A stretch of 26,455 bases of DNA from an uncultured Candidatus Cloacimonadota bacterium (GTDB lineage: Bacteria; Cloacimonadota; Cloacimonadia; Cloacimonadales; TCS61): NCBI GenBank assembly GCA_964460095.1, contig CAYWPW010000001.1, positions 1 through 26,455 on the forward strand, given 5' to 3'. The translations under genes were made by a program, and so were the position numbers. The notes under the pieces were generated by a model. The model ran no database searches and was not told the DNA's origin. It saw only the letters and a program-made list of their open reading frames with translations. Shown here piece after piece: positions 3-15,407 of this stretch (position 1 is its first letter; the number at the start of each line of letters is the position of its first letter).

Positions 3-1016
3 TACACAGGAGCAGCAATTTGTGCTACTTTAAGAGATGAAGTCCTGAATAGACCTGATCATATAAAAATTCTTGAACATCAACCTGTGGTGGAATTGAT
101 AAAAGATAATACCGGCAAAGTCTCGGGAGCAGTACTTTACCATCTTGAAAATAGAGAATACTTTACAGTGAAAGCAAAAGCAACTATTATCTCTACAGGT
201 GGTTTTGGCAGACTTCATATAAGAGATTTTGAAACTACAAACCATTATGGTGCAACCTGTGATGGTCCTGTGATAAGTTACAGAGCAGGAGCAAAACTTA
301 TGTATATGGATTCTGTTCAATATCATCCGACCGGAGCAATTTATCCACAGCAGATTATTGGATTTCTCTGCACTGAGAAACTCAGGTCTCTTGGTGCTCA
401 ACCTTTGAACATACAAAGTGAACTTTTTGTTAATCCTCTTGAACCCCGCGATGTTGAATCATCAGCTTTCATCAGGGAATGTTTGGAACGAAATAAAGGT
501 ATTAAAACACCTGATAACCATGTAGGTGTCTGGTTAGACACTCCCTTGATCGACCAGATAAATGGCAAGGGAACAATTCAAGCAAGTGTTCCGGCTATGG
601 TCAGACAATTTGCCAGGTTTGATGTAGATATGATTACGGAACCAATTCTGGTTTATCCAACTCTTCATTACCAGAATGGTGGAGTGGAAATAAATGCTCA
701 GTGTGAAACTAATATTCCCGGTCTTTTTGTAGCAGGTGAAGCATCCGGTGGAGTACACGGACGCAATAGATTAATGGGGAATTCACAGCTTGATATAATA
801 ATTTTTGGAAGAAGAGCCGGAAAATTTGCTGCTGATTATGCCAAAGGTGCAAAAATAGGTAAACTTAATCTGGATCATATTTATGAATATGAAAAAGAAG
901 TGAAAAAATTGGGGATCGATAAATCAAAAATTTCACCAATGGTTCTCCCTGATTATATTCCGGATGCAGTGAAAGCAAAACAACTTACAACCAAATATCA
1001 CGGAACTTTGAGATAA
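3..1016 (+). CDS. frdA: Fumarate reductase/succinate dehydrogenase-family flavoprotein (FrdA/SdhA/TfrA superfamily), 5'-truncated by the window edge, with a short C-terminus
   Basis: The frame is open from base 3 (YTGAAICATLRDEV...), so the ORF-track start at 87 is not the true start. Dicarboxylate-site motifs are present: QYHPTG, TEK, EPRD, PTLHYQNGG, GEASGGVHGRNRLMGNS. Confidence 0.85.
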   Translation, partial: YTGAAICATLRDEVLNRPDHIKILEHQPVVELIKDNTGKVSGAVLYHLENREYFTVKAKATIISTGGFGRLHIRDFETTNHYGATCDGPVISYRAGAKLMYMDSVQYHPTGAIYPQQIIGFLCTEKLRSLGAQPLNIQSELFVNPLEPRDVESSAFIRECLERNKGIKTPDNHVGVWLDTPLIDQINGKGTIQASVPAMVRQFARFDVDMITEPILVYPTLHYQNGGVEINAQCETNIPGLFVAGEASGGVHGRNRLMGNSQLDIIIFGRRAGKFAADYAKGAKIGKLNLDHIYEYEKEVKKLGIDKSKISPMVLPDYIPDAVKAKQLTTKYHGTLR

Positions 1017-1038: not shown

Positions 1039-2481
1039 TTGGGACTTGTAGATGTACAAAGGTTAAAAGAAATCGTAGGCGCAGAAAATGTAAAAGATGA
1101 CAAAGCCGATTTGTATGTATATGGTTCTGACTCATCAGTTCATCAAGCCATGCCCTGGGTAGTAGTAAGACCACACACAATAGAAGAAGTTCAAAATGTT
1201 ATGCGTTATGCAAATCCGAGGATGCTACCGGTTGTTGCCAGGGGAGCAGGCTCGGGTATGTCCGGTCAGGCTGTTCCCATCAAAGGTGGAATAGTAATGG
1301 ATTTTAAGAAAATGAATAAAATTCTTGAGATAAATCTTGAGGACACATTTGTCAGAGTTGAACCCGGTGTTGTGGATGATGATCTGAATCGTGCTTTGAA
1401 ACCACATAATGTATTCTATCCTCCAGCACCAGCTTCCAGCAGGATAGCTACGATCGGGGGAGAAATAGCCAACAATGCCAGCGGTGTGAGGTCTGTTAAA
1501 TACGGAGCTGTTCGGGATTCTGTTCTCGGTATGAGAGTGGTGCTGGCAAATGGAGATTTAATCGATGTTGGAGCTAAAACAAGAGTGCAGGCAACAGGCT
1601 ATCAGCTTGAAAGACTGATGGTTGGTTCCGAAGGCACCCTGGGTATTATTGTGGAAGCAACTCTGAAGATTGTTCCTATTCCTAAATTCAGATGCCTGGG
1701 AATAGCTAAATTCAATGAACTTGAAGATGCTGGTAATACAATTTCGGAAGTAATGTCCAGTGGGATTAATTTATCTATGCTGGAACTAATGGACAATATA
1801 GCTATTACTGCTGTTAATAAAGCTCTGGATTTGGGACTTCCGGATGTAGAAGCGATTCTTTTGTTTGAAGCTGACGGAATGGCAAAAGAAGCTGTTGATA
1901 TTGAAATCCAAAAAATAATTGAAATTTGTAAGAACCAAAAAGGTTTTGGTATCGATTTGAGTTATGATGCCAAAGAAAGAACAAAAATATTCTCCGGCAG
2001 GAAAAAATTGTTCCCATCTTTATCGAGATTTAAAGATTACTTTACTTGTGCATCTTTAGCTGATGATATGGCTGTCCCCTACTCTAAAATGGCAGAAACT
2101 GCCCAAAAGATTCATGAGATCGCTAAAAGAAATAATGTGATTATGACAGCTTACGGACACTGTGGTTCCGGATGTATGCATACCAAAATCCTGATGGATC
2201 CAAGAAAAGAAGCTCAATGGGAAGATGCCAAAAGAGCTGTATTCGAGATATATAATTATGTCAGATCAGTTGGAGGAACTACTTCCGCTGAACATGGGAT
2301 CGGAATATCAAAAGCTCCGGCATTTAAAAGAGAAAAATCTAACTCCTTAGGTGTAATGCGTGCCATAAAAAAGGCTTTAGATCCGAATAATGTATTAAAT
2401 CCCGGTAAGTTAATGGATGCACCGGATGATTGGGTTACTGCAACAAAATTGAGATATACTACAAAAAAAGGCATATTCTAA
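1039..2481 (+). CDS. FAD-linked oxidoreductase, GlcD/D-lactate (D-2-hydroxyacid) dehydrogenase family
   Basis: TTG start after AAGGAGG. Motifs ARGAGSGMSG, EPGVV, PAPASSRIATIGGEIANNASG, GSEGTLGII, GHCGSGCMH and SAEHGIG, plus DPNNVLNPGK near the C-terminus. Confidence 0.9.
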   Translation: MGLVDVQRLKEIVGAENVKDDKADLYVYGSDSSVHQAMPWVVVRPHTIEEVQNVMRYANPRMLPVVARGAGSGMSGQAVPIKGGIVMDFKKMNKILEINLEDTFVRVEPGVVDDDLNRALKPHNVFYPPAPASSRIATIGGEIANNASGVRSVKYGAVRDSVLGMRVVLANGDLIDVGAKTRVQATGYQLERLMVGSEGTLGIIVEATLKIVPIPKFRCLGIAKFNELEDAGNTISEVMSSGINLSMLELMDNIAITAVNKALDLGLPDVEAILLFEADGMAKEAVDIEIQKIIEICKNQKGFGIDLSYDAKERTKIFSGRKKLFPSLSRFKDYFTCASLADDMAVPYSKMAETAQKIHEIAKRNNVIMTAYGHCGSGCMHTKILMDPRKEAQWEDAKRAVFEIYNYVRSVGGTTSAEHGIGISKAPAFKREKSNSLGVMRAIKKALDPNNVLNPGKLMDAPDDWVTATKLRYTTKKGIF

Positions 2482-2527
2482 AGTTTTCTTTATCGAGAAT
2501 TTGAATAAGTTTTTAGGAGATTATTTC

Positions 2528-3112
2528 ATGGACTTTAAAAGAATTCAAAAATGGGATAATGAACTGAATATTTGCATTAGATGCGGATATTGCTTTGAAC
2601 AATGCCATCTTTTTAAGATTACTGGTTGGGAAACAGATGCTCCTCGTGGAAAGCTTATCTTGATCTATGGTTTAATACATGGAGAGACAAAACCATCAGA
2701 ATACATTGCAAATAAGATGTTTGAATGTTTCTATTGTAAAAGATGCGATAATAGTTGCTCAGCCGGAGTTTCCATAACTGATATTTTCACAGATGCAAGA
2801 GCTGATTTTGCGGATGCAGGTTTTGATGTTGATGGTACTACTTCAAAGACAAACGATGATTTGTGCAGCCGTTGTGGAATTTGTGTCTCAGTATGTAAAC
2901 ACGAAGCTCGCTCTCTGGATAAAGAGAATAAAAAGATTATAATTGATAAGGTTAAATGTCAGAGTTGCGGCTGCTGCGAAGCAGCATGTCCTTCCGGAGC
3001 TGCATATATTGTTGAAGGCTGGGAACTGGGAGAGAATGAATTGCGTGAAAAAGTGATCAATTTTTTAAAGGAAGATAATAATGAACCCAAAATCAGTAAT
3101 ATTTTGTTGTAG
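2528..3112 (+). CDS. Chimeric Fe-S protein: HdrC/HdrD/GlcF-type 4Fe-4S dicluster plus a 2x[4Fe-4S] ferredoxin resembling the HdrA C-terminal domain
   Basis: ATG at 2528 follows AGGAGA. Four Cys motifs: CIRCGYCFEQC, CFYCKRCDNSC, CSRCGICVSVC, CQSCGCCEAACP. Confidence 0.8.
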   Translation: MDFKRIQKWDNELNICIRCGYCFEQCHLFKITGWETDAPRGKLILIYGLIHGETKPSEYIANKMFECFYCKRCDNSCSAGVSITDIFTDARADFADAGFDVDGTTSKTNDDLCSRCGICVSVCKHEARSLDKENKKIIIDKVKCQSCGCCEAACPSGAAYIVEGWELGENELREKVINFLKEDNNEPKISNILL

Positions 3113-3479
3113 TTGGTCTTCATATCCTGGGTTACAGTTATCCGAAAGTCTTTATGAAGATCCCGGAAAACAAAACAATATAATCATAAGTATGTGCTCT
3201 GGTAGAGTTTCTGCAGAATTAATATTAGAAGCATTTAAAAATGATGCCTGGGGAGTAATGATAGCAAGTTGCCCAAAAGAGAAGTGTGAACATGATGCAA
3301 ATTACAAAACAAGAAGAAGGATTTTGTTACTTCAAAAAATGCTCGAGCAGTTAGGAATTGAACCTGCAAGAATAAAGCTTGAATGGATCGATAAAGGAGA
3401 AGCTGCTAAGCTGAAACTTGCGATCGATGATTTTTCAAATGAATTAAGAAAAATGGGACCTGTAAATATTATAAACTAG
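3081..3479 (+). CDS. mvhD: MvhD/FlpD [2Fe-2S] hydrogenase delta subunit
   Basis: FCCSWSSYPG, MCSGRV, SCPKEKCEH..N and LGIEPARIKLEWI match the MvhD family. The ORF overlaps the upstream gene by 32 nt and may be part of a fusion (see findings). Confidence 0.85.
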   Translation: MNPKSVIFCCSWSSYPGLQLSESLYEDPGKQNNIIISMCSGRVSAELILEAFKNDAWGVMIASCPKEKCEHDANYKTRRRILLLQKMLEQLGIEPARIKLEWIDKGEAAKLKLAIDDFSNELRKMGPVNIIN

Positions 3480-3492
3480 GAGTATATTTTTT

Positions 3493-4560
3493 ATGGAAAC
3501 AAAATATTTAAGACAATGGGAAAATGAACTTAATATTTGTATTAGATGTGGTTATTGTTTTGAGGGGTGCCCTGTTTTTAAGGAACTTGGCTGGGAAATA
3601 GATGGAGCAAGAGGTAAATTAATTGTAGCCTATGGATTACTGACTGGTGAGCTTGAACCTTCTGAACACATTGCAGAAAAGTTGTTTCAGTGTACTTTCT
3701 GTAGAGATTGCGTAGAAAGATGCTCAGCAGATATATCGGTGCCGGATATTATGGGAGCAGCCAGAGCTGATCTGTTTGAAGCAGGTTATTCTTACGACTC
3801 ACATAAAGAGCTCACAAAAAAAATTGAAAAGAGCGGCAATATCTTTGGAAAAGAACTTGAGCCTCCCGTATTTGAAGGTGATAAGGCGGTTCTATTAGGG
3901 TGCAGACTTGTTGAAAGAAAAGAAGATTCAGAGAAATATCTAACAATACTGGAAAAACTTGGAGTGAAAACAAAGACGTTTAATGAAACCTGCTGCGGTA
4001 TGCCATTTGCTGTTCTGGGTGATAAAAACGGTTTTAAAACTCAACAAGATAAATTTAGAGATACAATACCTGATAAAAAAGAAGAAGTAATTTGTGTTTG
4101 TACTACTTGTGTATTTTTTATCAGGGCAAAATATCCTGATTTGAAAGCTAAATATATAATTGATGAAATAGTGGAAAGATTGCCTGATTATAAAGGCAAA
4201 TTAAAAAAGTTAAACATTAAAGTAACATATCATGATCCCTGTAATGTAGCAAGGGGAATGGGTATGGTTGATGAACCCAGAGATATTCTAAAGAAAATTT
4301 GCTCGGAATTGGTTGAGATGCCTACTTACGGCAAGCAAGCTGAATGTTGCGGTGGTGGTGGGGGATTATTAGTATCAGATGATAAGTTAGCTGAAAAACT
4401 TGCTGAAAACCGTGTAGAACAAGCAATAGAAACCGGTGCAAAAGTTTTAACCACACTTTGTCCAACCTGCGAATTAAATCTTAAAAATGCTGCAGAAAAA
4501 TATAATGGAAAAATTAAAGTTAATAACCTTCTTGATCTTTTATACGATTCGATGATGTAG
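3493..4560 (+). CDS. HdrD/GlcF/TfrB-like Fe-S oxidoreductase with a 4Fe-4S dicluster and two CCG domains
   Basis: N-terminal CIRCGYCFEGCP and CTFCRDCVERC. Two complete CCG motifs: GC...TCCG...CTTC and HDPC...ECCGGGGG...CPTC. Confidence 0.88.
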   Translation: METKYLRQWENELNICIRCGYCFEGCPVFKELGWEIDGARGKLIVAYGLLTGELEPSEHIAEKLFQCTFCRDCVERCSADISVPDIMGAARADLFEAGYSYDSHKELTKKIEKSGNIFGKELEPPVFEGDKAVLLGCRLVERKEDSEKYLTILEKLGVKTKTFNETCCGMPFAVLGDKNGFKTQQDKFRDTIPDKKEEVICVCTTCVFFIRAKYPDLKAKYIIDEIVERLPDYKGKLKKLNIKVTYHDPCNVARGMGMVDEPRDILKKICSELVEMPTYGKQAECCGGGGGLLVSDDKLAEKLAENRVEQAIETGAKVLTTLCPTCELNLKNAAEKYNGKIKVNNLLDLLYDSMM

Positions 4561-4615
4561 AATGAGAATTAAAAAATTAAATTTTCTATAGATACTTTAA
4601 TAAATGGAGGCATAA

Positions 4616-5632
4616 GTGCCAAAACCTAAAGTAGCTTTTTATTGGTGTGCATCCTGTGGGGGTTGTGAAGAAGCCATTGTAGACCTGAATGAAGATATCC
4701 TGAAAGTAGTTGAATTGGTAGACATTGTGTTCTGGCCCTGTGCAATGGATTTCAAATATCAAGATGTTAGAAATATGAAAGACAATGAGATCACAGTTGC
4801 TTTTATAAATGGAGCTATCCGCACTGATGAGCAGGAAGAAATTGTACAACTTCTCAGGAAGAAAGCTCAACTTGTAATCGCTTTCGGATCTTGTTCTCAT
4901 CTGGGTGGAATCCCGGGATTAGCAAATTTCTGGGATAGAGAAACTATTTTTGAATCCTCTTATGGGAAGAATTGTCCTTCTGTTGATAACCCTAAAAGGA
5001 TTTTTCCACAAACAAAAAGTAAAGTTCCGGAAGGAGAACTGACTTTACCTGCTTTTCATAATACGGTAAAAAGCCTTGATCAGGTAATCGATGTGGATTA
5101 TTATATTCCCGGATGTTCTCCTGCACCATATTTAACAATGCAGGCGATAGAAGCTATTCTTGCTGGGGAATTACCAGAGAAAGGAACTGTTCTGGCTCCC
5201 TTAAAATCTTTGTGTGATGTTTGTGAACGTAATGATTCCAAACCGGAAAAAATTTCTCTGAATAAGATAAAAAGAATTTCCGAAGTAATAGCAGATCCTG
5301 AAAAGTGTTTTCTGGCTGAGGGGATTATCTGTTTGGGACCGGTTACCAGGGCAGGATGCGCTTCGGAAGGTAGTGGAAGATGTATCACAGCAAACATGCC
5401 ATGTAGAGGTTGTTATGGACCTCCACCAGAAGTAAAAGATGTTGGTGGAAAAATGATATCTTCTCTCGCTTCCATAGTAGGTTTGGAAGGTGAAGAAAAT
5501 ATGAGCGATGAAGATGTAGAAAAGCTTATTGATCAGATAGTTGATCCTGCCGGATATTTTTATCGCTTTTCTCTACCAGCTTCTTTATTAAGAAGAAAAA
5601 GGATGAATGATCCTGTAGCGGAGAATGAATAA
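4616..5632 (+). CDS. mvhG: Group 3c [NiFe]-hydrogenase small subunit MvhG
   Basis: GTG start after GGAGG. CASCGGC, GSCSHLGGIPG, PGCSP, CDVC, CLGPVTRAGC and PCRGCYG are present. Confidence 0.9.
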   Translation: MPKPKVAFYWCASCGGCEEAIVDLNEDILKVVELVDIVFWPCAMDFKYQDVRNMKDNEITVAFINGAIRTDEQEEIVQLLRKKAQLVIAFGSCSHLGGIPGLANFWDRETIFESSYGKNCPSVDNPKRIFPQTKSKVPEGELTLPAFHNTVKSLDQVIDVDYYIPGCSPAPYLTMQAIEAILAGELPEKGTVLAPLKSLCDVCERNDSKPEKISLNKIKRISEVIADPEKCFLAEGIICLGPVTRAGCASEGSGRCITANMPCRGCYGPPPEVKDVGGKMISSLASIVGLEGEENMSDEDVEKLIDQIVDPAGYFYRFSLPASLLRRKRMNDPVAENE

Positions 5633-5633
5633 A

Positions 5634-7097
5634 ATGGCTAAAAAAATAACAATAGATCCGATTACTAAATTAGAAGGTCACGGTAAAATAGAAATTTTCC
5701 TCGATGATGATGGAGATGTTAAGAATGCATATTTACAGGTTCCTGAATTGAGGGGATTCGAGCAATTCTGCGTGGGACGACCGGTAGAAGAACTGGCAAG
5801 AATAACTCCCCGCATTTGCGGTGTTTGCCCTACAACTCATCATCTGTGTTCAACTAAAACACTCGATGCTGTTTATAATGTTACACCAACAGATACCGCT
5901 GTAAAACTCAGACGACTCATCAACGATGCTTTTATTGCAGAAGATCATCTGCTTCATTTCTTCTTCCTGGGTGGTCCTGATTTTGTGGTCGGACCGGATG
6001 CTCCTCCCGGAGAAAGAAATATTCTGGGTGTTATCGGTAAGGTCGGTATTGAAATCGGTAAAAAAGTTATCGATATGAGAAGAAGGCTGCGAAGTATTAT
6101 CACCTATCTTGGTGGAAGAGTGATTCATCCTGTATGTGGTTTACCTGGCGGTATTTCAAAAGGATTACCGGAAGATCAGCGTTTAGCTTTTTTGAAAGTT
6201 GCTAAAGATGCCGTGGAATTTTCTAAGTTCTGTTTGCAGGTATTTGATGACATCGTTCTAAAAAATGATACTTACCTCGATTTAATTGTGGGTGATATTT
6301 TCAAACACCAAACTTATTACATGGGTCTGGTTGATGAAAATAACAAAGTTGATCTCTATGACGGGAAGATTCGAGTAGTTGATCCGAATGGAAAAGAATT
6401 TGTTAAATTTGAAGCAAAGGATTATCTGGATCATATTGTCGAGCATGTAGAACCCTGGAGTTATATTAAATTCCCATATTTAAAAAATATCGGTTGGAAG
6501 GGTTTTGTTGATGGAATCGACAGTGGTGTTTACCGTGTTGCTCCCCTGGCAAGACTCAATGCTGCTGATGGCATGAAAACCCCTCTGGCGCAGGCTGAAT
6601 ATGAAAAAATGTATGCTACCCTGGGAGGGAAACCTGCTCATAATACATTAGCTTTTCACTGGGCAAGATTGATAGAGGTTATGTATGTTTCTGAAGAGTT
6701 AGTTCAACTTCTTGAAGATAAATCAATCACAAATCCTGATATCAGGAATCTTCCTACAGAAACTCCAAGTGAAGGTGTTGGTGTTATCGAAGCTCCCCGG
6801 GGAACTTTGTTCCATCATTATAAAACAGATAAAAACGGTATGGTAACAAATGTAAATCTGATAGTGGCTACTGTTAATAATTCTGCTGCTATTTCCATGT
6901 CTATTGCCAAAGCTGCAAAAGGGCTGATCAGCAAAGGTAAAGTCGATGATGGACTTTTGAATATGGTGGAAATGGCTTTTCGATCTTATGATCCTTGTCT
7001 TGCTTGTGCAACGCATTCTTTGCCGGGGAAAATGCCTCTTATCGTAAATCTTCGCGATAACAACAAGGATATAGTTAAATCTATTAGAAGAGATTAG
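5634..7097 (+). CDS. mvhA: Group 3c [NiFe]-hydrogenase large subunit MvhA
   Basis: IDPITKLEGHGKI N-terminus, L1 motif RICGVC, EAPRG, and L2 motif FRSYDPCLACATH followed by a cleavable C-terminal extension. ATG 5634 is preferred over 5625. Confidence 0.93.
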   Translation: MAKKITIDPITKLEGHGKIEIFLDDDGDVKNAYLQVPELRGFEQFCVGRPVEELARITPRICGVCPTTHHLCSTKTLDAVYNVTPTDTAVKLRRLINDAFIAEDHLLHFFFLGGPDFVVGPDAPPGERNILGVIGKVGIEIGKKVIDMRRRLRSIITYLGGRVIHPVCGLPGGISKGLPEDQRLAFLKVAKDAVEFSKFCLQVFDDIVLKNDTYLDLIVGDIFKHQTYYMGLVDENNKVDLYDGKIRVVDPNGKEFVKFEAKDYLDHIVEHVEPWSYIKFPYLKNIGWKGFVDGIDSGVYRVAPLARLNAADGMKTPLAQAEYEKMYATLGGKPAHNTLAFHWARLIEVMYVSEELVQLLEDKSITNPDIRNLPTETPSEGVGVIEAPRGTLFHHYKTDKNGMVTNVNLIVATVNNSAAISMSIAKAAKGLISKGKVDDGLLNMVEMAFRSYDPCLACATHSLPGKMPLIVNLRDNNKDIVKSIRRD

Positions 7098-7105
7098 CTT
7101 TTTTA

Positions 7106-7561
7106 ATGAAAACACTTGTTTTAGGATTGGGAAATACGATTTTAACTGATGATGGAGTAGGAATAAGGGTAGCACAAAAAATAAAAGAAAGATGTAAAAA
7201 TGTCGATGTCTCCGAAGCCAGCGCTGCTGGCTTCAGAGTTATAGACGAGATAATTGGTTACGATAAACTTATTTTAATTGACTCAATAAAAACCGGAAAA
7301 TCTGAACCCGGAAAGCTTCATAAATTTACTTTTGAAGAATTCAAAAAAACAAGACATCATGCTCAACCACACGACATCAGCCTATTTGAAGCTTTTGAGA
7401 TCATTAAACAACACGGAGATAAATTACCTTCTGAAATTGAAATTTATGCCGTGGAAGTTAGTGATACATCTACTCTTTCTGAAACATGCACAATGGAAGT
7501 TGAAGCTTCTATTCCAAAAATATCTCAAAAAATCATTGATGAACAATCACTCTTTAAATAA
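7106..7561 (+). CDS. Hydrogenase maturation protease (HyaD/HycI family)
   Basis: LVLGLGNTILTDDGVG, LILIDS and H..H motifs. It lies directly after mvhA. Confidence 0.9.
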   Translation: MKTLVLGLGNTILTDDGVGIRVAQKIKERCKNVDVSEASAAGFRVIDEIIGYDKLILIDSIKTGKSEPGKLHKFTFEEFKKTRHHAQPHDISLFEAFEIIKQHGDKLPSEIEIYAVEVSDTSTLSETCTMEVEASIPKISQKIIDEQSLFK

Positions 7562-7572
7562 TTTGTATTTGT

Positions 7573-7604
7573 CATTCTCATCAGGTAACTGCCCGATGGG
7601 AATG
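7573..7604. other. Intergenic hairpin between the hydrogenase module and sucC
   Basis: CATTCTCATC (7573-7582) pairs with GATGGGAATG (7595-7604) with one G-U pair and a 12-nt loop. Confidence 0.5.
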
Positions 7605-7614
7605 TTCAATTTCT

Positions 7615-7641
7615 GTTACTAAGCTGGGGCTTAGTAACGAG
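7615..7641 (-). repeat. REP-like palindrome, family member 1
   Basis: GTTACTAAGC-TGGG-GCTTAGTAAC is a perfect 10-bp stem. Its reverse complement matches 22011-22037 at 20 of 27 positions. Confidence 0.7.
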
Positions 7642-7683
7642 GATTAATGTGCTCTGTAGTTAATAAATAAATAAAGAGGAAAA

Positions 7684-8853
7684 ATGAATATTCACGAATA
7701 TCAGGCGAAACAGATTTTTGCAAAATATGATGTTCCCATTCCTAAAGGAAAAATGATCGAAAAAGCTGAAGATGCAATTGATGCAGCTAAGGAAATAGGT
7801 GGGAATATCTGGGTAGTAAAAGCTCAGATCCACGCAGGAGGAAGAGGAAAAGGTGGTGGAGTAAAACTCGCCAGATCCCTCGATGAAGTAGAAAAATATG
7901 CTTCTGAAATAATTGGAATGACCCTGATAACTCATCAAACCGGACCTGCTGGAAAATTAGTTAAAAAAGTTTATATTGAAGGTGGGATCGATATAAAAAA
8001 GGAACTCTATCTGGGAATGGTTCTGGATAGAGCAAAAGAACTGCCTGTTATGATGGCTTCTACCGAAGGTGGAGTGGAAATCGAAAAAGTAGCTGCAGAA
8101 ATGCCAGAAAAAATCATCAAAGTTGAAATTGATCCTCTCACCGGATTTCAGGGATATCATGCTCGAGAATTAGCATTTGGTTTGAATCTTTCAAAAGAGC
8201 AGATAAAAGAATTCGGAAAATTTGCTAAAGCACTTTACAAAGTTTATTCTTTGAATGATGCAAGCCTTGTGGAAATAAATCCTTTGGTTTTAACTGCTGA
8301 TGATAAATTTATTGCACTCGATGCCAAAATGGGATTTGATGATAACGCTCTTTTCCGGCACAAAGATATTTTAGAAATGCGTGATCTGGATGAGGAAGAT
8401 CCTGCAGAAATTGAAGCAAGTGAATATGGCTTAAGCTATGTAAAACTCGATGGAAATGTGGGCTGTATGGTAAATGGAGCAGGATTGGCAATGTCAACAA
8501 TGGATATTATTAAACTCGAAGGCGGTGAACCTGCAAATTTCCTGGATGTTGGTGGCAAAGCCAGTGCAAGTACGGTTGCCAAAGGTTTTGAAATAATCCT
8601 GAAAGACCCGAATGTAAAAGCGATCCTGGTTAATATCTTTGGTGGCATTGTTCGATGTGATAGGATTGCCAACGGTATTCTGGAAGCTACAGAAACAACC
8701 CGTGTCGAGGTTCCAATTGTTGTCAGGCTGGACGGAACAAATGCCAAAGAAGCCATAGAGATAATTGGAAAATCCAGTTTAACAAATATCATTTCTGCAA
8801 CCGACCTTGGAGATGCTGCCAGAAAAGTTGTAAAAGCTGCCAAAGGAGTGTGA
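7684..8853 (+). CDS. sucC: Succinyl-CoA synthetase beta subunit
   Basis: [62 protein letters not shown]. Confidence 0.96.
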
Positions 8854-8856
8854 CCG

Positions 8857-9729
8857 ATGAGTATTTTAGTAAATAAAACTTCAAGGGTGATTGTTCAGGG
8901 TTTCACGGGAAAGGAAGGGACATTTCATGCAGAACAGTGTATTGCTTATGGCACAAATGTAGTAGGTGGTGTTACTCCCGGCAAAGGTGGTCAAACTCAT
9001 CTTGGCAGACCTGTTTTTAATACGGTAAAAGAAGCTGTAAAAGCTACAGAAACAGACACATCATTGATTCTGGTTCCACCAGCTTTTGCTGCTGATGCTA
9101 TAATGGAAGCTGCTGCTGCAGGAATTAAAGTGATCGTCTGCATAACCGAAGGTATCCCTACAAGAGATGTTATTATTGCTAAAAAATTTACTGATAAACA
9201 AGGAGCAACCTTAATTGGACCAAACTGCCCGGGAATTATTACTGCAGATGAAGCTAAGGTTGGGATTATGCCGGGCTTTGTGTTTAAAAAAGGAAAAGTG
9301 GGTTTGATTTCCAAATCCGGAACATTAACCTATGAAATGGCAAACCAGGTGGTTCTGGCAGATCTGGGAATTTCAACTGCGATAGGCATCGGTGGAGACC
9401 CGATAATAGGTACAACTATCATCGATCTTTTAAAGCTTTTTGAAAAAGACAAAGAAACAGAAGCAATAGTTATTATCGGTGAGATCGGTGGTGATATGGA
9501 AATTCAAGCAGCGGAGTATATCAAAGAAAATATCACGAAACCTGTAGTGGCATTCATAGCTGGACGTACAGCTCCCAAAGGAAAACGAATGGGACACGCT
9601 GGAGCTATTATTGCCGGAAGTAAAGGTACAGCCCAGGAAAAAATGGATGCACTTACAAAAGCTGGAGTTACTGTGGTTGATTCTCCTGCTGATATAGGGG
9701 TGAAAGTTCGAGAGATTCTTAATAAATAA
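8857..9729 (+). CDS. sucD: Succinyl-CoA synthetase alpha subunit
   Basis: [40 protein letters not shown], and the phospho-His motif MGHAGA. Confidence 0.96.
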
Positions 9730-9752
9730 TACTCTGAACAAAGGAAGGTTAT

Positions 9753-10577
9753 ATGAATGACATAGAAAAAACTAATAAAACTGCAGAAGAATATAAAATG
9801 CAGGGAGAGTTGTTGAAAGCTTCCCAAGAGTATAATAAAATATTGGATAAAGATCCGAATAATATTAATTCAAGGATAAGTCTCGCAGATATTTATTATA
9901 TTCTTGGTGATATTAATAAATCAATAGAGCAGTATGAAAAAGCTGTTGAACTAAAACCTCATTATGGCTTGGTTTTATACCGTTTGGGCATTTCATATTT
10001 TCGGGCTACAAAATTCTATAAAGCGATTTCTGTTCTGGACAGGGTAATCAAATTAGATCCAGATTTATATATGGCTTATTATTGGAAAGGTCTTTCTTAT
10101 TATCATATCGGAAGAGTTCGGAAAAGTATCGAATCATACAAAAAGCTCCGGGAAAAGGGGAAGGACAGCACTTTAGGATATTATCATCTGGCAATTTCCT
10201 ATAAAACTATCGGGAATTATAAAGAAGCAATAAAATGTCTCGAACAGATTTTAAAGGAAGAACAAAATATCGTTTCAGTCAATTATCATCTCGGTCTTTC
10301 ATATTTGGGACTTTCAAAAATTGAAAAAGCTCTCCTATGCTTCAAAAAAGTTCTGGAAATCGATTCCGAACATCAGGGAGCAAAAGATATCCTCGGTAAT
10401 CTCTCTACTGATCAGGAAATGCTTTATACGTTCGGTATTGAGGAATCAAAAAGAGACAGTAACATCGAGGAATTAATTACTAACTATCATGTTGGAGAAA
10501 CTTACAAAGGATTTTCTTCTATTGATAGAGCATTTAAATATTTTAGAAAAAAACTTAAGGAAAAACAAAAGGACTAG
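9753..10577 (+). CDS. Tetratricopeptide-repeat protein (paralogue of 25542-26213)
   Basis: Repeating ~34-aa TPR units (Y..LG..Y, A...Y.K). No catalytic domain is evident. Confidence 0.85.
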   Translation: MNDIEKTNKTAEEYKMQGELLKASQEYNKILDKDPNNINSRISLADIYYILGDINKSIEQYEKAVELKPHYGLVLYRLGISYFRATKFYKAISVLDRVIKLDPDLYMAYYWKGLSYYHIGRVRKSIESYKKLREKGKDSTLGYYHLAISYKTIGNYKEAIKCLEQILKEEQNIVSVNYHLGLSYLGLSKIEKALLCFKKVLEIDSEHQGAKDILGNLSTDQEMLYTFGIEESKRDSNIEELITNYHVGETYKGFSSIDRAFKYFRKKLKEKQKD

Positions 10578-10658
10578 CAATAAAGATTGTTTTTTAAAAA
10601 AAATTGTTTTCTAAGATAAAAATGTTCCTTAGAAAAGTAAATTATATTAGGAGAATTT

Positions 10659-11504
10659 ATGCGAGAAATTGATGTTAATAAGATTATTCCAATAGTAAAA
10701 AAACTCTGTATTGATGCGAGTATTTACATTGGAGACGATGTGGTTGAGAAGCTTAAAGAGTTTCAGGAAAAGGAAGAATCTCCTATCGCAAAAGAGATTA
10801 TTTCCATAATTTTTGAGAATCAGAGATTATCTGTTGAGAAACAAATGCCTTTGTGCCAGGATACAGGAGTAGCTGTATTTTTTATTGAGCTCGGACAAGA
10901 TGTTCACCTGGTAGGAGGTGATTTTTATAAAGCTATCAACGAGGGCGTTCGTCAGGGTTATAAAGAAGGTTACTTGCGAAAATCTATGGTTGATGATCCA
11001 ATTATTGAAAGAAAAAACACCAAAGATAATACTCCTGCACTTATTTATTTGGATATTGTTCAGGGAGATAAGATAAAAATTACTCTTGCAGCAAAAGGTG
11101 GTGGTTCCGAAAATATGAGCGAAGTAAAAATGATGAAAGCCGCTGATGGAATCGAAGGTGTAATAGATTTTGTTGTGGATAGAGTTAAAAGGTCAGGTGG
11201 AAATCCATGCCCACCAATTATCGTTGGAGTTGGTCTGGGTGGAAATTTTGAACAAAGTGCTCTGCTGGCAAAGAAATCTCTTCTCCGTCCTTTGAATGAA
11301 AAACACCCCGATCCTAAGTGGGCGAAAGTTGAAGAAGAAATTTTAGAAAAAGTTAATAACCTGGGGATAGGACCACAGGGATTGGGTGGCAGAACAACTG
11401 CCATTGCTGTTCAAATATTGGCTAAACCTTGCCATATAGCTTCAATGCCGGTTGCTGTAAACATTCAATGTCATGTTCACAGACATAAAAGTGCAGTGAT
11501 ATAA
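10659..11504 (+). CDS. fumA: Fe-S class I fumarate hydratase, alpha subunit (FumA/TtdA family)
   Basis: PLCQDTG, DNTPA, KGGGSEN, NPCPP and CHVHRH motifs, in a TCA context. Confidence 0.88.
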   Translation: MREIDVNKIIPIVKKLCIDASIYIGDDVVEKLKEFQEKEESPIAKEIISIIFENQRLSVEKQMPLCQDTGVAVFFIELGQDVHLVGGDFYKAINEGVRQGYKEGYLRKSMVDDPIIERKNTKDNTPALIYLDIVQGDKIKITLAAKGGGSENMSEVKMMKAADGIEGVIDFVVDRVKRSGGNPCPPIIVGVGLGGNFEQSALLAKKSLLRPLNEKHPDPKWAKVEEEILEKVNNLGIGPQGLGGRTTAIAVQILAKPCHIASMPVAVNIQCHVHRHKSAVI

Positions 11505-11515
11505 AAGGAGAAATA

Positions 11516-12070
11516 ATGGCTAAAGAAATACATTTACAGACTCCACTAAAAGATGAAGATCTGGAAAAACTCAATATTGGTGACAAGGTTCTCATTACGG
11601 GAACCGTGTACACAGCACGCGATGCTGCTCATAAAAGACTTGTTGACTTAATAGAAGCAGGAAAAGAGCTTCCTTTTGATATTAAAGGACAGATAATCTA
11701 TTTTGTCGGTCCTGCTCCTGCTAGACCGGGAATGCCTATCGGTTCAGCAGGTCCCACAACTAGCTACAGAATGGATTCCTATTCCCCAATTCTTCTGGAT
11801 GAAGGCTTAAAAGGGATGATTGGAAAAGGACCCAGAAGTAAAGAAGTCATTAATTCAATGATAAAAAATAAAGGCGTGTATTTTGCGGCAATCGGTGGAG
11901 CTGCAGTTGTAATGGCTCAATCCATAAAAGCTGCAAAAGTGATAGCTTATGAAGATCTTGGAACGGAAGCGATAAGAGAATTGAAAGTGGAAAACCTACC
12001 ATGCATTGTTGCAAATGATGTTTATGGTAATGATTTATTTGATGAAGGAGTTAAAAAATACAGAAAATGA
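11516..12070 (+). CDS. fumB: Fe-S class I fumarate hydratase, beta subunit (FumB/TtdB family)
   Basis: TARDAAHKR, GPTTSYRMD, GKGPR and EDLGTEA motifs. It is adjacent to the alpha subunit. Confidence 0.88.
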   Translation: MAKEIHLQTPLKDEDLEKLNIGDKVLITGTVYTARDAAHKRLVDLIEAGKELPFDIKGQIIYFVGPAPARPGMPIGSAGPTTSYRMDSYSPILLDEGLKGMIGKGPRSKEVINSMIKNKGVYFAAIGGAAVVMAQSIKAAKVIAYEDLGTEAIRELKVENLPCIVANDVYGNDLFDEGVKKYRK

Positions 12071-12107
12071 AATTCTTGTTCCCAAGTTTGACTTGGGAAC
12101 AAGAATT
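12071..12107. repeat. REP-like palindrome, family member 2 (perfect 17-bp stem)
   Basis: AATTCTTGTTCCCAAGT-TTG-ACTTGGGAACAAGAATT starts immediately after the fumB stop codon. It shares the CTTGTTCCCA...TGGGAAC core with 22128-22154. Confidence 0.8.
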
Positions 12108-12125
12108 ATCAAACAAGGAGGTATT

Positions 12126-13049
12126 ATGGAAAAAGTTTCAATTATTGGTAGTGGGAATGTTGGAACCGCAGCAGCATTCTATATAGCGGAGAAGTGTACT
12201 GCGAATATTATGCTAATTGACATCTTAGAAGGAAAAGCTGAAGGTAGCGCTTTGGACCTTGCAGAAGCTTCTCCACTACGTGATTATGATATTAAAATCG
12301 AAGGATCTTCAAACATTGAAGATATCAAAGATTCCAAAGTAGTTGTAATAACTGCTGGAAAAGTGAGAAAACCTAATACATTACGACTTGAACTTCTAGA
12401 AGAAAACGTAAAAATTATCGACCCGATAATCAAAGACATCAAAAAATATGCGCCTGATTCAATCGTTATTATTCTTACAGAACCAATAACATCAATGACA
12501 TATTATGCTTGGAAAAAATTAGGTTTCGATCGACAAAAAGTTCTTGGTGTTGCTGGCAAATTAGACGTTGCCAGAGTTTGTGAATTCGTCTCTCAGGAAC
12601 TCAAAGTGACTCCTGTTGAAGTTAGCGCACTTGTACTTGGAGGTCATCACAAATTTATGGTAATTCCACCTGAGTTTATAAGAGTGTGCGGTATTCCAAT
12701 AAACGAACTGATTCCTAAAGACCGTGTTGATCAAATCATCACTAAAGTTAGAGAAGCCGGAACTGATATTCTTACATTACTCAAAAAACAAACCTCCATG
12801 TATTCTCCAGGTGCTGCTATAGCTGAAACCGTCGGTGCGATCATTAATGACACAAAAGCAATTCTTTGCGTTCCAACTTGCCTTGAAGGTGAATACGGAT
12901 TCAAGGACTTATGTTTGGGTGTACCCGTACAAATAGGGATAAATGGTATTGAAAAAATTATTGAATTAGAACTCTCCCTTGATATTAAGGAGAAACTTCA
13001 AATCTCTGCTGATGTGATAAAGAAAACCATTGAATCTTTGGGAATATAG
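12126..13049 (+). CDS. Divergent LDH-like malate dehydrogenase paralogue
   Basis: ATG 12126 follows AAGGAGG; the ORF-track start at 12006 lies inside fumB. IIGSGNVG, TAGKVRKP..LR, LDVAR and LGGH are present, but the conserved TNP motif reads TEP. Confidence 0.8.
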   Translation: MEKVSIIGSGNVGTAAAFYIAEKCTANIMLIDILEGKAEGSALDLAEASPLRDYDIKIEGSSNIEDIKDSKVVVITAGKVRKPNTLRLELLEENVKIIDPIIKDIKKYAPDSIVIILTEPITSMTYYAWKKLGFDRQKVLGVAGKLDVARVCEFVSQELKVTPVEVSALVLGGHHKFMVIPPEFIRVCGIPINELIPKDRVDQIITKVREAGTDILTLLKKQTSMYSPGAAIAETVGAIINDTKAILCVPTCLEGEYGFKDLCLGVPVQIGINGIEKIIELELSLDIKEKLQISADVIKKTIESLGI

Positions 13050-13057
13050 GAGGAACC

Positions 13058-13990
13058 ATGAAAGTTAGTATAATTGGAAGCGGAAATGTTGGTGTTGCCT
13101 GTGCACTTTATTTGGCAGAAAAGCGTGTTTCGAATATTGTTTTAATCGATGTTGTAGAAGGCTGGGCAGAAGGTAAAGCAATGGATATTGTACAAGCTTC
13201 TCCGATTCGACGATATGATGTTTTTATCAATGGCTATTCTGATATCAGTATGATAAAAGATTCTGAGGTGGTTGTAGTCACAGCAGGTAAGCCAAGATTA
13301 CCTGGCATGTCCAGAGAAGATTTACTGCGTGATAACGTAAAAATTATGAAAAATGTTTCAGAAAGCATCGCCAGATATGCCCCGAATTCAATCGTCATCA
13401 CTGTTACAAATCCTCTTGATATTCTGGCTTATGTAGCTTTGAAAGTTACAGGTTTTGCATTGAAGAAAGTTATTGGTATGGCCGGAATACTTGATTCTTC
13501 AAGATTTAGATATTTTATTGCCCATGAACTTGGAGTAAGTCCTAAAAATGTTACTGCTCTTGTATTAGGTGGTCATGGTGATTTGATGGTACCTTTACCG
13601 CGATATTCAACAGTTCATGGAATTCCGGTTTCAGAACTTTTACCAAAAGCAAAAATTGATAAACTAATAGAACGCACCCGCAAAGCCGGTGGTGAAATTG
13701 TGGCATATCTCAAAACTGGTAGTGCGTATTGGTCACCTGGTAGCTCGGCAGCAGAGATGGCTGAATGCATAGTTCGTAATAGAAATAGAATAGTACCTTG
13801 CTCAGCATATCTAAGAGGAGAATACGGAATTGACGGTTTGTTTGCTGGTGTTCCAATCAAAATCGGTAGAAATGGAGTTGAGGAAATAATCGAATTGTCA
13901 CTCACTACTGAAGAAACACAAGCCCTACATCTTTCAGCTGAAAAAGTAAGGGAAGTTATTGAAAAAATCGAAGCGGAAAAACTTATTTGA
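13058..13990 (+). CDS. mdh: Malate dehydrogenase (NAD, LDH-like tetrameric type)
   Basis: IIGSGNVG, TAGKPRLPGMSREDLL (both substrate Arg residues), VTNPLD, LDSSR, LGGHGD. Confidence 0.93.
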   Translation: MKVSIIGSGNVGVACALYLAEKRVSNIVLIDVVEGWAEGKAMDIVQASPIRRYDVFINGYSDISMIKDSEVVVVTAGKPRLPGMSREDLLRDNVKIMKNVSESIARYAPNSIVITVTNPLDILAYVALKVTGFALKKVIGMAGILDSSRFRYFIAHELGVSPKNVTALVLGGHGDLMVPLPRYSTVHGIPVSELLPKAKIDKLIERTRKAGGEIVAYLKTGSAYWSPGSSAAEMAECIVRNRNRIVPCSAYLRGEYGIDGLFAGVPIKIGRNGVEEIIELSLTTEETQALHLSAEKVREVIEKIEAEKLI

Positions 13991-15327
13991 TGAAATTACA
14001 AATTCCATTTTGGGGAGAGGAACTTACTGTTTCTCTCCCCAAACACAATATAGGGGAAATCATATTCCCTAATTCAGTTGAGATACGACCGGAAAAGGAG
14101 ATTCTTTTTGAGGCTTTCAATAATCCGGTTGATACAGGTAGTTTTGATGATTTTATTAAAGGTGATGAGCCTATTCTCATTATTATTAATGATGCTACAA
14201 GACCAACGCCAAATGCAAGAATCATAGATCTTTTCTGGAACAAAATAAAAGATAAGGATATAAAATTTCTAATTGCTACAGGAGGCCATAGAGCACCATC
14301 CAAAGATGAATATCTCGAACTTTTTGGGAATCATTATTCAGAATTAGAAAAAAATATATTTTCACACGATTCAAAAAATAAAGAAGAAAACATCTATATT
14401 GGTAAAACTGAAAATGGCACAGAAGTTTATTTCGATAAAATGGTTATGAACGCTAACAAAATAATTTACATAACTTCTGTTGAACCGCACTATTTTGCTG
14501 GTTTTACCGGTGGAGCAAAATCCTTTTTACCCGGAATTGCCGCTCATAAAACAATCGAGCAAAATCATGAGCTGGCATTAAAAGCTACTGCTAAAGCATT
14601 AGTTATTGAAGGGAATCCAGTTAGAAATGATATAAAAGAAGCTTATGATTTCATTGCAAAAGATAAGAAGATTTTTTCAATTCAAACCGTCTTAAACAAA
14701 GACCATAGAATTTATTTTTGTGTTTGCGGTGAAACACACAAGGCTTTCAAATTAGCATGCGAAAAAGCAAATGATGTTTTTTCAGTGGAAATCAGAGAAA
14801 GAGCAGATATCGTTGTATCAGTTGCACCTTATCCAATGGACATCGATTTTTATCAATCGCAGAAAGCAATTGATAATGGCAAATTTGCATTGAATCCGAA
14901 TGGGATTCTCATTTTAGTAGCAAGTTGCAGGAAAGGGCTTGGAGGGAAATCATTTTTTAAACTATTAAGTGAATCCAGAAATCCTGATGAAGTCTTTAAT
15001 AAAATTGCACAAGGTTTCAAACTGGGTTATCATAAAGCAGCTAAAATGGCGGAAATCATGAAGTGGGCTTCTATCTGGGCTTACACAAAGCTTGAACCTG
15101 AATTACTGAATCATATTTTTATTAAAGGATTTGGAGATTTACAGGAAGCAATAGATGCCAGCCTGAAGGAAAAGGGAAACGAAAAAATACTCTTTTTGAT
15201 GGATGGTAGTTTAACTGTTCCTCGAATCGCACACCGCATCCTTCACAAAAGAAAGTTCATCTACGCTCCAGTTACAGATAAAAACCCAAAAAATCATATC
15301 AAACTCGATGATCTGTTTATTGATTGA
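13990..15327 (+). CDS. larA: LarA-family nickel-pincer 2-hydroxyacid racemase/epimerase (substrate unknown)
   Basis: TGATG coupling to mdh. INDATRPTP, ATGGHR, EPHYFAGFTGGAKS, NH, YQSQKA and DGSLTVP match lactate racemase family residues. About 35 extra residues follow at the C-terminus. Confidence 0.85.
   Translation: MKLQIPFWGEELTVSLPKHNIGEIIFPNSVEIRPEKEILFEAFNNPVDTGSFDDFIKGDEPILIIINDATRPTPNARIIDLFWNKIKDKDIKFLIATGGHRAPSKDEYLELFGNHYSELEKNIFSHDSKNKEENIYIGKTENGTEVYFDKMVMNANKIIYITSVEPHYFAGFTGGAKSFLPGIAAHKTIEQNHELALKATAKALVIEGNPVRNDIKEAYDFIAKDKKIFSIQTVLNKDHRIYFCVCGETHKAFKLACEKANDVFSVEIRERADIVVSVAPYPMDIDFYQSQKAIDNGKFALNPNGILILVASCRKGLGGKSFFKLLSESRNPDEVFNKIAQGFKLGYHKAAKMAEIMKWASIWAYTKLEPELLNHIFIKGFGDLQEAIDASLKEKGNEKILFLMDGSLTVPRIAHRILHKRKFIYAPVTDKNPKNHIKLDDLFID
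14009..14043 (+). other. 15-bp hairpin inside the 5' coding region of larA
   Basis: TTTGGGGAGAGGAAC-TTACT-GTTTCTCTCCCCAAA gives 14 Watson-Crick pairs plus one G-U pair. Confidence 0.6.
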
Positions 15328-15407
15328 TATTTTATTCAACTTACTATATTTTAGCAAGTTGTGAATCTTATTAAACGTATAATTTGAGTACAAGAAAAAA
15401 AAATAAA

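Follow-up and report, generated by a model that had tools for sequence, protein, structure and literature searches.

The closest described counterparts of the locus considered here are the lct operons of Acetobacterium woodii and Anaerobutyricum, which encode a nickel-dependent lactate racemase together with a D-specific, GlcD-type lactate dehydrogenase (LDH), LctD, that is bound to EtfAB (PDB 7QH2; PMC7702098). Anaerostipes hadrus, in whose genome the racemase gene is missing, cannot use L-lactate (PMC7702098). Here, we analyze a stretch of 26,455 nucleotides (the window) from an uncultured Candidatus Cloacimonadota bacterium, which is contig C1 of a metagenome-assembled genome (MAG; 2.26 Mb, 89% complete) and encodes a homologue of the nickel-pincer racemase LarA as well as a GlcD-type flavoprotein (Table 1). 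The likeness to lct lies in the clustering of a racemase gene with that of a D-specific FAD/metal-dependent dehydrogenase of the GlcD family, in the passage of electrons, presumed for our locus, to a bifurcating or confurcating partner instead of straight to NAD, and in the relatedness of the flavoproteins, LctD (7qh2_C) being the second-best solved relative of the window GlcD after the glycolate oxidase 9qgz. In lct, the racemase admits the L-isomer. The partner of the dehydrogenase there is EtfAB, however, whereas the partners here are an Fd-MvhD adaptor, an HdrD-like protein with CCG domains, HdrA, and a [NiFe] hydrogenase; furthermore, the window LarA has a malate-type signature, its neighbors are enzymes of the tricarboxylic acid (TCA) cycle rather than a lactate permease, and the cofactor genes are absent. 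Because of the relatedness to LctD, and because D-malate-oxidizing FAD enzymes of the GlcD family are known (PMC10025160, PMC12294151), we read the locus as a malate counterpart of lct.

That LarA, GlcD, and their Fe-S partners (Fd-MvhD and the HdrD-like CCG protein) together make up a single conserved redox module that inverts the stereochemistry of a 2-hydroxy-dicarboxylate, most probably malate, is a reading that we consider about evenly balanced. Racemases paired with D-specific flavoproteins are already known; such a module would be a new form of this arrangement, and our literature search found no description of a LarA-GlcD-Hdr/Mvh malate module.

The linkage of LarA with the GlcD flavoprotein, which the initial annotation had proposed from this one window, recurs across phyla. 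We compared 80 loci, one genome per species from more than 10 phyla, in which open reading frames (ORFs) were labelled by blastp against the window proteins. The set includes WOR-3, TA06, Zixibacteria, Stahlbacteria, Edwardsbacteria, and Sumerlaeota, and it also spans Spirochaetia, Dehalococcoidia, Desulfobacterales, Acidobacteriota, Myxococcota, and Methanomassiliicoccales. In 50/80 loci, a GlcD orthologue, mostly 64–77% identical, is found no more than 5 kb from LarA, and in 61/80 at least one of GlcD, Fd(-MvhD), and CCG is, against a rough chance expectation of about 2% per locus. The remaining loci are mostly short contigs or carriers of an mdh1-mdh2 pair. At the same distance, Fd is found in 39/80 loci and the CCG protein in 16/80, while a hydrogenase is near LarA in only 5/80 and malate dehydrogenase (MDH) in 10/80. 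As most loci have neither of the latter nearby, the function of the LarA-GlcD core does not depend on hydrogenase or MDH. Co-occurrence, which the initial annotation had suggested examining, is near-perfect: among 201 Cloacimonadota genomes, LarA and GlcD orthologues are each found in 13, with 12 genomes having both, one having each alone, and 187 having neither (Fisher p = 3e-17, uncorrected for phylogeny), and the two genomes that break the pattern are 81%-complete MAGs. Together, synteny and co-occurrence support a functional link between LarA and the GlcD flavoprotein. Culturable organisms with LarA of this type include Desulfobacterium autotrophicum (HRM2_30760) and Wolinella succinogenes (WS0140), with GlcD-Fd neighbors confirmed only for a D. 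autotrophicum-like locus.

The commonest layouts are GlcD-Fd-LarA and LarA-GlcD-CCG, and fumarase, MDH, malic enzyme, or citrate lyase recurs beside them. Fumarase genes adjoin LarA/GlcD in loci L012, L078, L085, and L134; the order in L012, which has no hydrogenase, is citEF-mdh1-mdh2-larA-GlcD-fumA-fumB-CCG, and in Dehalococcoidia it is GlcD-Fd-LarA-FumA-HdrC-HdrB-SdhB-SdhA-FumB. Other loci combine the core with the hydrogenase. L013 reads HdrA-MvhD-HdrC-HdrB-SdhB-SdhA-GlcD-Fd-MvhD-mdh1-mdh2-larA-MvhG-MvhA-HycI, and L049 reads GlcD-CCG-mdh1-mdh2-larA-MvhG-MvhA, while in L047 mdh1-mdh2-larA stands upstream of MvhGA, with the part farther upstream missing at the contig end. In Desulfobacterium (L084), Fd and MvhD are fused into one protein of 324 aa.

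Some of these loci have further neighbors. In the Desulfobacterium locus (L084:11518-15140), GlcD-(Fd-MvhD)-LarA stands back to back with HdrA-like/MvhD genes, MetF (methylene-tetrahydrofolate reductase), and RACo activators, and a MetV-like gene follows LarA in an Acidobacteria locus (L119). A gene for a GcvH-like lipoyl carrier adjoins LarA in nine loci, namely L012, L063, and seven of WOR-3/TA06/Stahlbacteria type (L068-L070, L073, L075, L076, L113), and in the GcvH-bearing loci of the latter type, CCG domains either partner GlcD or are fused to it; a lipoate-protein ligase gene is also present in L012 and L081. These neighbors hint at a lipoyl-protein disulfide as a substrate of the CCG protein. 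A lipoyl carrier as part of the window's own cluster was dropped from consideration, the sole GcvH homologue of the genome being located among housekeeping genes on contig C247.

We next consider the racemase. The window LarA consists of Lar_N (PF09861, 169 bits) and LarA_C (PF21113, 56 bits) domains. Its best NCBIfam model is that of the LarAH6 malate racemase (NF052593), in which, at 354.6 bits against a cut-off of 500 bits, it is not a member, and its best PDB match is Mar2 (6D6Z, E = 1e-61). In L. plantarum numbering, the protein keeps D72, R75, H108, H174, K184, H200, Y294, Q295, and K298, for which roles in catalysis and cofactor binding are given in PMC12611868. By alignment to 5HUQ/6C1W, the two catalytic His (H108 and H174), D72, and K298 correspond to H100, H167, D68, and K292, which are invariant in 12 LarA orthologues, and the cofactor-binding residues R71, K177, and H193, which correspond to R75, K184 (the tether), and H200 (a Ni ligand), are conserved. 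Selection on the Cloacimonadota LarA is strongly purifying (dN/dS = 0.05–0.12), and from its sequence the gene would clearly be functional despite the missing larBCE.

Placing LarA among the substrate-annotated groups of its superfamily, another step that had been proposed for this locus, leads to Group 04 ("MAR?") by both signature and tree. The window LarA fits all positions of the 20-position signature of this group, D R H H Y F K H V Y Q Q K G H K A K M E, in an alignment against the rows of Dataset S1 of Desguin et al. 2020 (PMC7583248). Each position of the signature is a residue that occurs in a verified malate racemase, the GHK motif included (PMC7583248). Binding of the second carboxylate of malate has been proposed for a Tyr that follows the catalytic His, a Gln that precedes the catalytic Lys, and the GHK motif, all of which belong to this signature. 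The window protein has neither the lactate-type signature (F-F loop, V297, W358) nor the NQT motif of 2-hydroxyglutarate (2-HG) racemases. Its identity to Group 04 members (Methanomassiliicoccus, D. autotrophicum, Wolinella, and L. zymae) is 46–50%, compared with 28% to Mar1, and its clade nests inside Group 04 in a FastTree phylogeny rooted on Mar1. It thus shares signature, identity range, and tree placement with HRM2_30760, WS0140, and LarAH4, whereas the Cloacimonadota clade is a derived one. Compared to Mar2 (LarAH6) of Thermoanaerobacterium thermosaccharolyticum, the window LarA has the same Tyr and Gln beside the catalytic His and Lys, respectively, and the same GxHK motif, but Lys173 of Mar2 is replaced by Phe, as in Mar1, and the genomic context is unlike. 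Because of the Group 04 signature and the neighboring fumarase, MDH, malic enzyme, and citrate lyase genes, we favor malate, which is most likely the substrate that LarA and GlcD share. The context table published for Group 04 lists a COG0247 Fe-S oxidoreductase at 39%, GlcD (COG0277) at 17%, and MvhD (COG1908) at 17%, which were left uninterpreted (PMC7583248).

Additional LarA copies are observed in other Cloacimonadota. A class-level relative (genome G066) carries two Group 04 paralogues: a canonical one that follows GlcD-Fd-MvhD at a contig end (L052, G066:C57, 9358-10635) and one of the Cloacimonadota type that follows MDH2 at the start of a contig (L047, G066:C89, 8466-9869). These contigs are probably neighbors, in which case both racemases would belong to one operon. 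In another Cloacimonadota genus, a remoter LarA paralogue with 35% identity adjoins fumarase alpha and beta (L056, G010:C12, 9385-11962); the association of a LarA-type protein with a malate-forming enzyme therefore recurs beyond the Cloacimonadota clade of Group 04.

The GlcD gene stands inside the hydrogenase module, as had been noticed initially, and is followed by the genes for Fd, MvhD, the CCG protein, MvhG, MvhA, and HycI. Against the model for the glycolate oxidase subunit equivalog (TIGR00387), the protein scores 401.6 bits with a cut-off of 567.9, and it is not a member. Its His/His/Glu metal site is recognizable, with GHCGSGCMH...SAEHGIG aligning with AHAGDGNLH...TGEHGVG of 9qgz. 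Two contigs of the same species with an identical GlcD protein, L005 and L007, reach about 6 kb farther upstream. There (L005, 1-5969; L007, 3-1322), the GlcD gene is preceded by genes for HdrA (cut), a 389-aa Fe-S protein, an FrhB-like Fe-S protein, an SdhB-like protein, and the SdhA/TfrA-like flavoprotein, which is complete at 555 aa. The HdrA of L007 scores 331 bits to HdrA2 and marks the upstream end of the GlcD/Mvh cluster. Since HdrA precedes GlcD in these contigs, the module is not HdrA-less, and with the SdhA/TfrA-like gene also upstream, GlcD is one of two organic-acid flavoproteins in an HdrA/Mvh supercluster.

The supercluster resembles the MvhADG-HdrABC system of methanogens and thiol:fumarate reductase TfrAB in having MvhA, MvhG, MvhD, TfrA-like, and TfrB-like proteins in the window and HdrA in the same-species contig L007. 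It differs in that SdhA-like and GlcD flavoproteins are found where the heterodisulfide site would be, and coenzyme M/coenzyme B heterodisulfide chemistry is not expected in a bacterium. In methanogens, MvhD is the [2Fe-2S] electron-transfer subunit that docks on HdrA. The CCG subunit of the window species occurs only as a fused HdrD/TfrB-like protein, while the relative in L013 has separate HdrC and HdrB. The locus lacks the EtfA and EtfB that are encoded with the dehydrogenase in the lct-type LDH/EtfAB system: no Etf domain was found in a Pfam scan of window ORFs of at least 200 aa and some shorter ones, in the upstream genes of L005/L007, or in the Pfam lists for L011-L013. A further comparison is with YdiJ, which is described as a D-2-HG dehydrogenase (PMC9504171). 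GlcD plus the CCG protein amounts to the same domain set, the YdiJ model matches in the window with 223 bits, and in a WOR-3 relative (L070), GlcD, Fer4, and CCG are fused into a YdiJ-like protein of 833 aa. In the window, however, GlcD and CCG are split and there is an extra Fd-MvhD arm, and YdiJ has no racemase partner.

At the other end of the cluster, larA was initially described as translationally coupled to an upstream mdh by a TGATG overlap. The junction is as described: reading ...ctt att TGA TG aaa..., the stop codon of mdh2 occupies 13988-13990 and the in-frame ATG of larA 13990-13992. The single mdh gene is not, as two MDH-family genes stand in tandem upstream of larA. Stop/start overlaps of 1 nt are frequent in operons and have little meaning alone; overlap or direct abutment of mdh2 and larA is found again in the orthologous loci L013 and L011. 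By alignment, MDH2 carries all canonical catalytic residues (R102, R109, N140, D168, R171, and H195). MDH1 retains R102, R109, D168, R171, and H195 but lacks the N140 of LDH-like L-malate dehydrogenases, with Glu replacing Asn140 in 20/20 orthologues and His replacing Gly196 in 19/20. The mobile loop of MDH1 differs as well (PNTLR versus PGMSR), and the protein is a distinct, conserved paralogue whose gene always immediately precedes those for canonical MDH2 and LarA.

The substrate, complex formation, and electron path that we infer for the module can be outlined as follows. LarA would interconvert L-malate and D-malate by the nickel-pincer hydride mechanism, and the D-specific GlcD flavoprotein would interconvert D-malate and oxaloacetate. 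Electrons of GlcD would travel via Fe-S clusters, MvhD and/or the CCG protein, to the HdrA/Mvh hydrogenase system rather than NAD, while fumarase and MDH2 would tie the module to the ordinary L-malate pool. We favor oxaloacetate as an electron acceptor in the reductive succinate branch, with the reverse direction equally allowed. With a standard potential of about -170 mV, the oxaloacetate/malate couple is near that of the heterodisulfide, and oxaloacetate could therefore be the high-potential acceptor of Mvh-HdrA bifurcation; use of the module in reverse, as a confurcating oxidation, is possible. Rather doubtful to us is the fullest version of this scheme, that of an Mvh-HdrA-type bifurcating or confurcating system in which oxaloacetate/D-malate at GlcD and fumarate/succinate at the SdhA-like protein replace the heterodisulfide, with LarA as the obligatory adaptor to the L-malate pool and nickel-pincer nucleotide (NPN) or a precursor being taken up from members of the community, or the cofactor being made by an unrecognized route.

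Several observations weigh against a working malate module in this bacterium, the first of which concerns the cofactor. The initial annotation had stated that larB, larC, and larE lie outside the window, and none is there. It had also named their absence from the genome as refuting its proposal, and in formal terms, this is what we find: the LarB, LarC, and LarE models give no match over cut-off in the window's own genome, which is also empty by tblastn with the LarB, LarC, and LarE of a same-genus genome. Of the 12 other genomes with a LarA orthologue, 11 lack larBCE, the exception being G122, and four of the larBCE-negative genomes with LarA are 96% complete. More broadly, larC is present in only 2/201 Cloacimonadota genomes, though 62/201 carry LarA-family genes. 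The racemase step would therefore need a cofactor source that is not encoded here. The Cloacimonadota LarA clade also sits on a long stem branch and has 21 private replacements at positions that are at least 90% conserved elsewhere, including R176A (beside the tethering Lys), T75N, and H212R, and the only Group 04 enzyme assayed so far, LarAH4, was inactive after refolding (PMC7583248). Finally, the window GlcD is overall nearer to glycolate/lactate enzymes than to D2HGDH by sequence comparison, and it is separated from LarA by 11.5 kb.

In other phyla, the module is fully equipped, as larC is usually present (24/32 genomes with the same LarA group). For the Cloacimonadota LarA, a cofactor from the community, an unrecognized biosynthesis, and altered chemistry are all possibilities. 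Contig G122:C34 is the only same-genus contig with larE-larB-larC; it has no close genes in common with the window genome and is either an accessory island or mis-binned. PP-loop proteins, which give weak matches to the LarE model, were rejected as LarE substitutes, as they occur in all Cloacimonadota whether LarA is present or not. As a side observation, the LarB model, which normally also matches PurE, has no match in the searched Cloacimonadota of family f1, the window genome among those without one, except for the true LarB of G122, while it does match PurE-like genes in families f3, f4, and f14; family f1 may be without de novo purine synthesis.

The missing cofactor genes bear on whether the Cloacimonadota protein has ceased to be a nickel-pincer racemase, having turned to another cofactor or chemistry or to a binding or structural role, with GlcD acting as an independent electron-input or -output flavoprotein of Hdr/Mvh. 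The near-absence of larC from the phylum and the clade-specific substitutions would fit such a loss, but we consider it unlikely, as all catalytic and cofactor-binding residues are kept under the low dN/dS ratios given above, larC is present in most of the sister clade that shares the mdh1-mdh2-larA triad, and the LarA literature that we examined reports no residue-retaining LarA-family protein that is active without NPN. The racemase and D-dehydrogenase could also be functional on a substrate other than malate, such as lactate, 2-HG (including the repair of L-2-HG formed by a side activity of MDH), tartrate, or another 2-hydroxy acid. Here, the nearest solved relatives of GlcD (glycolate oxidase, LctD, and LDHD), the D-2-HG dehydrogenase activity of YdiJ-type enzymes combining GlcD, FeS, and CCG, the epimerization of tartrate by known malate racemases, the proximity of MDH and isocitrate dehydrogenase (IDH), and the question mark in the Group 04 label all leave room for such a reading. 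The Mar-type Y, Q, and GHK of LarA in place of lactate or 2-HG motifs, and the MDH, fumarase, citrate lyase, or malic enzyme repeatedly found beside the module, argue against it, and we would not expect it to be correct.

The proposal of the initial annotation was that H2 reduces oxaloacetate to D-malate at GlcD, LarA converts this to L-malate, and MDH reoxidizes the latter with NAD, for a net H2:NAD+ transhydrogenase. Its components (an Mvh hydrogenase, GlcD, LarA, and a canonical MDH2) are all present and linked, the mdh genes are inserted into the hydrogenase operon in L013 and L049, and the net reaction is exergonic by standard potentials. The oxidation of L-malate by NAD+ is nonetheless strongly endergonic, the LarA-GlcD core mostly occurs with neither hydrogenase nor MDH nearby, and larBCE is absent here, all of which make this cycle quite improbable. 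Scarcely credible, lastly, is a placement of larA and GlcD by chance or by a general clustering of central-metabolism genes. The distance between the two genes in the window, with sucCD, a TPR gene, and fumarase in between, would suit this explanation; it is contradicted by the dozens of loci, in unrelated phyla, where the two genes are immediate neighbors and by their near-perfect co-occurrence.

If the malate module is real, it would provide a first physiological role for malate racemases, which are the largest predicted nickel-pincer activity class and whose in vivo function is open in the literature. It would also be a candidate for the way in which quinone-free strict anaerobes join two couples, malate/oxaloacetate and fumarate/succinate, to H2 and ferredoxin, and this would matter for succinate/propionate fermentation as well as for the oxidation of propionate by syntrophs in digesters. 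That an entire phylum retains nickel-pincer enzymes under purifying selection while lacking the known cofactor pathway would, in turn, point to cross-feeding or to a new biosynthesis.

The gene map of the window (Table 1) is based on the ORF list and on Pfam/NCBIfam profile matches, and every gene listed is on the + strand.

Table 1. Features of the window and the matches on which their assignments are based.
Feature	Positions	Strand	Matches and remarks
SdhA/TfrA-like fumarate reductase-type flavoprotein, C-terminal part	3..1016	+	FAD_binding_2; TfrA is the best NCBIfam match; 5' cut by contig end
GlcD-type FAD/metal-dependent D-2-hydroxyacid dehydrogenase, proposed D-malate/oxaloacetate oxidoreductase	1039..2481	+	FAD_binding_4 + FAD-oxidase_C
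"Fd" ferredoxin-like adaptor, two 2x[4Fe-4S] domains	2528..3112	+	Fer4_8/Fer4_7; 194-aa start as in called genes of L005
MvhD	3081..3479	+	FlpD, 116 bits; matches HdrA2 C-terminus and VhuD
HdrD/GlcF/TfrB-like protein, 2x[4Fe-4S] + two CCG domains	3493..4560	+	Fer4_8 + CCG; TfrB, 167 bits
MvhG/VhuG, group-3c [NiFe] hydrogenase small subunit	4616..5632	+	Oxidored_q6; VhuG, 187 bits
MvhA/VhuA, [NiFe] hydrogenase large subunit	5625..7097	+	NiFeSe_Hases; VhuA, 416 bits
HycI-type hydrogenase maturation protease	7106..7561	+	Pfam HycI
Class I fumarase, alpha	10659..11504	+	Fumerase; makes or uses L-malate (with beta)
Class I fumarase, beta	11516..12070	+	Fumerase_C
MDH1, diverged LDH/MDH-family paralogue	12126..13049	+	Ldh_1_N/C; GGAGG precedes ATG at 12126
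MDH2, canonical NAD-dependent L-malate dehydrogenase	13058..13990	+	MDH models, 431 and 401 bits, over cut-offs
TGATG overlap, mdh2 stop/larA start	13988..13992	+	Read from sequence
LarA homologue, Group 04 "MAR?", putative malate racemase	13990..15327	+	Lar_N + LarA_C
PALP-family gene	15384..16733	+	Between larA and malic enzyme

The sucCD and TPR genes occupy the interval between HycI and the class I fumarase. On the 3' side of larA, the PALP-family gene is followed by genes for malic enzyme, a phosphoenolpyruvate carboxykinase-like protein, citrate synthase, aconitase, and IDH. The PALP-family gene was dropped as a cofactor-related candidate; it was not detected in any of the related loci examined and therefore appears to be a local insertion specific to the window genome.

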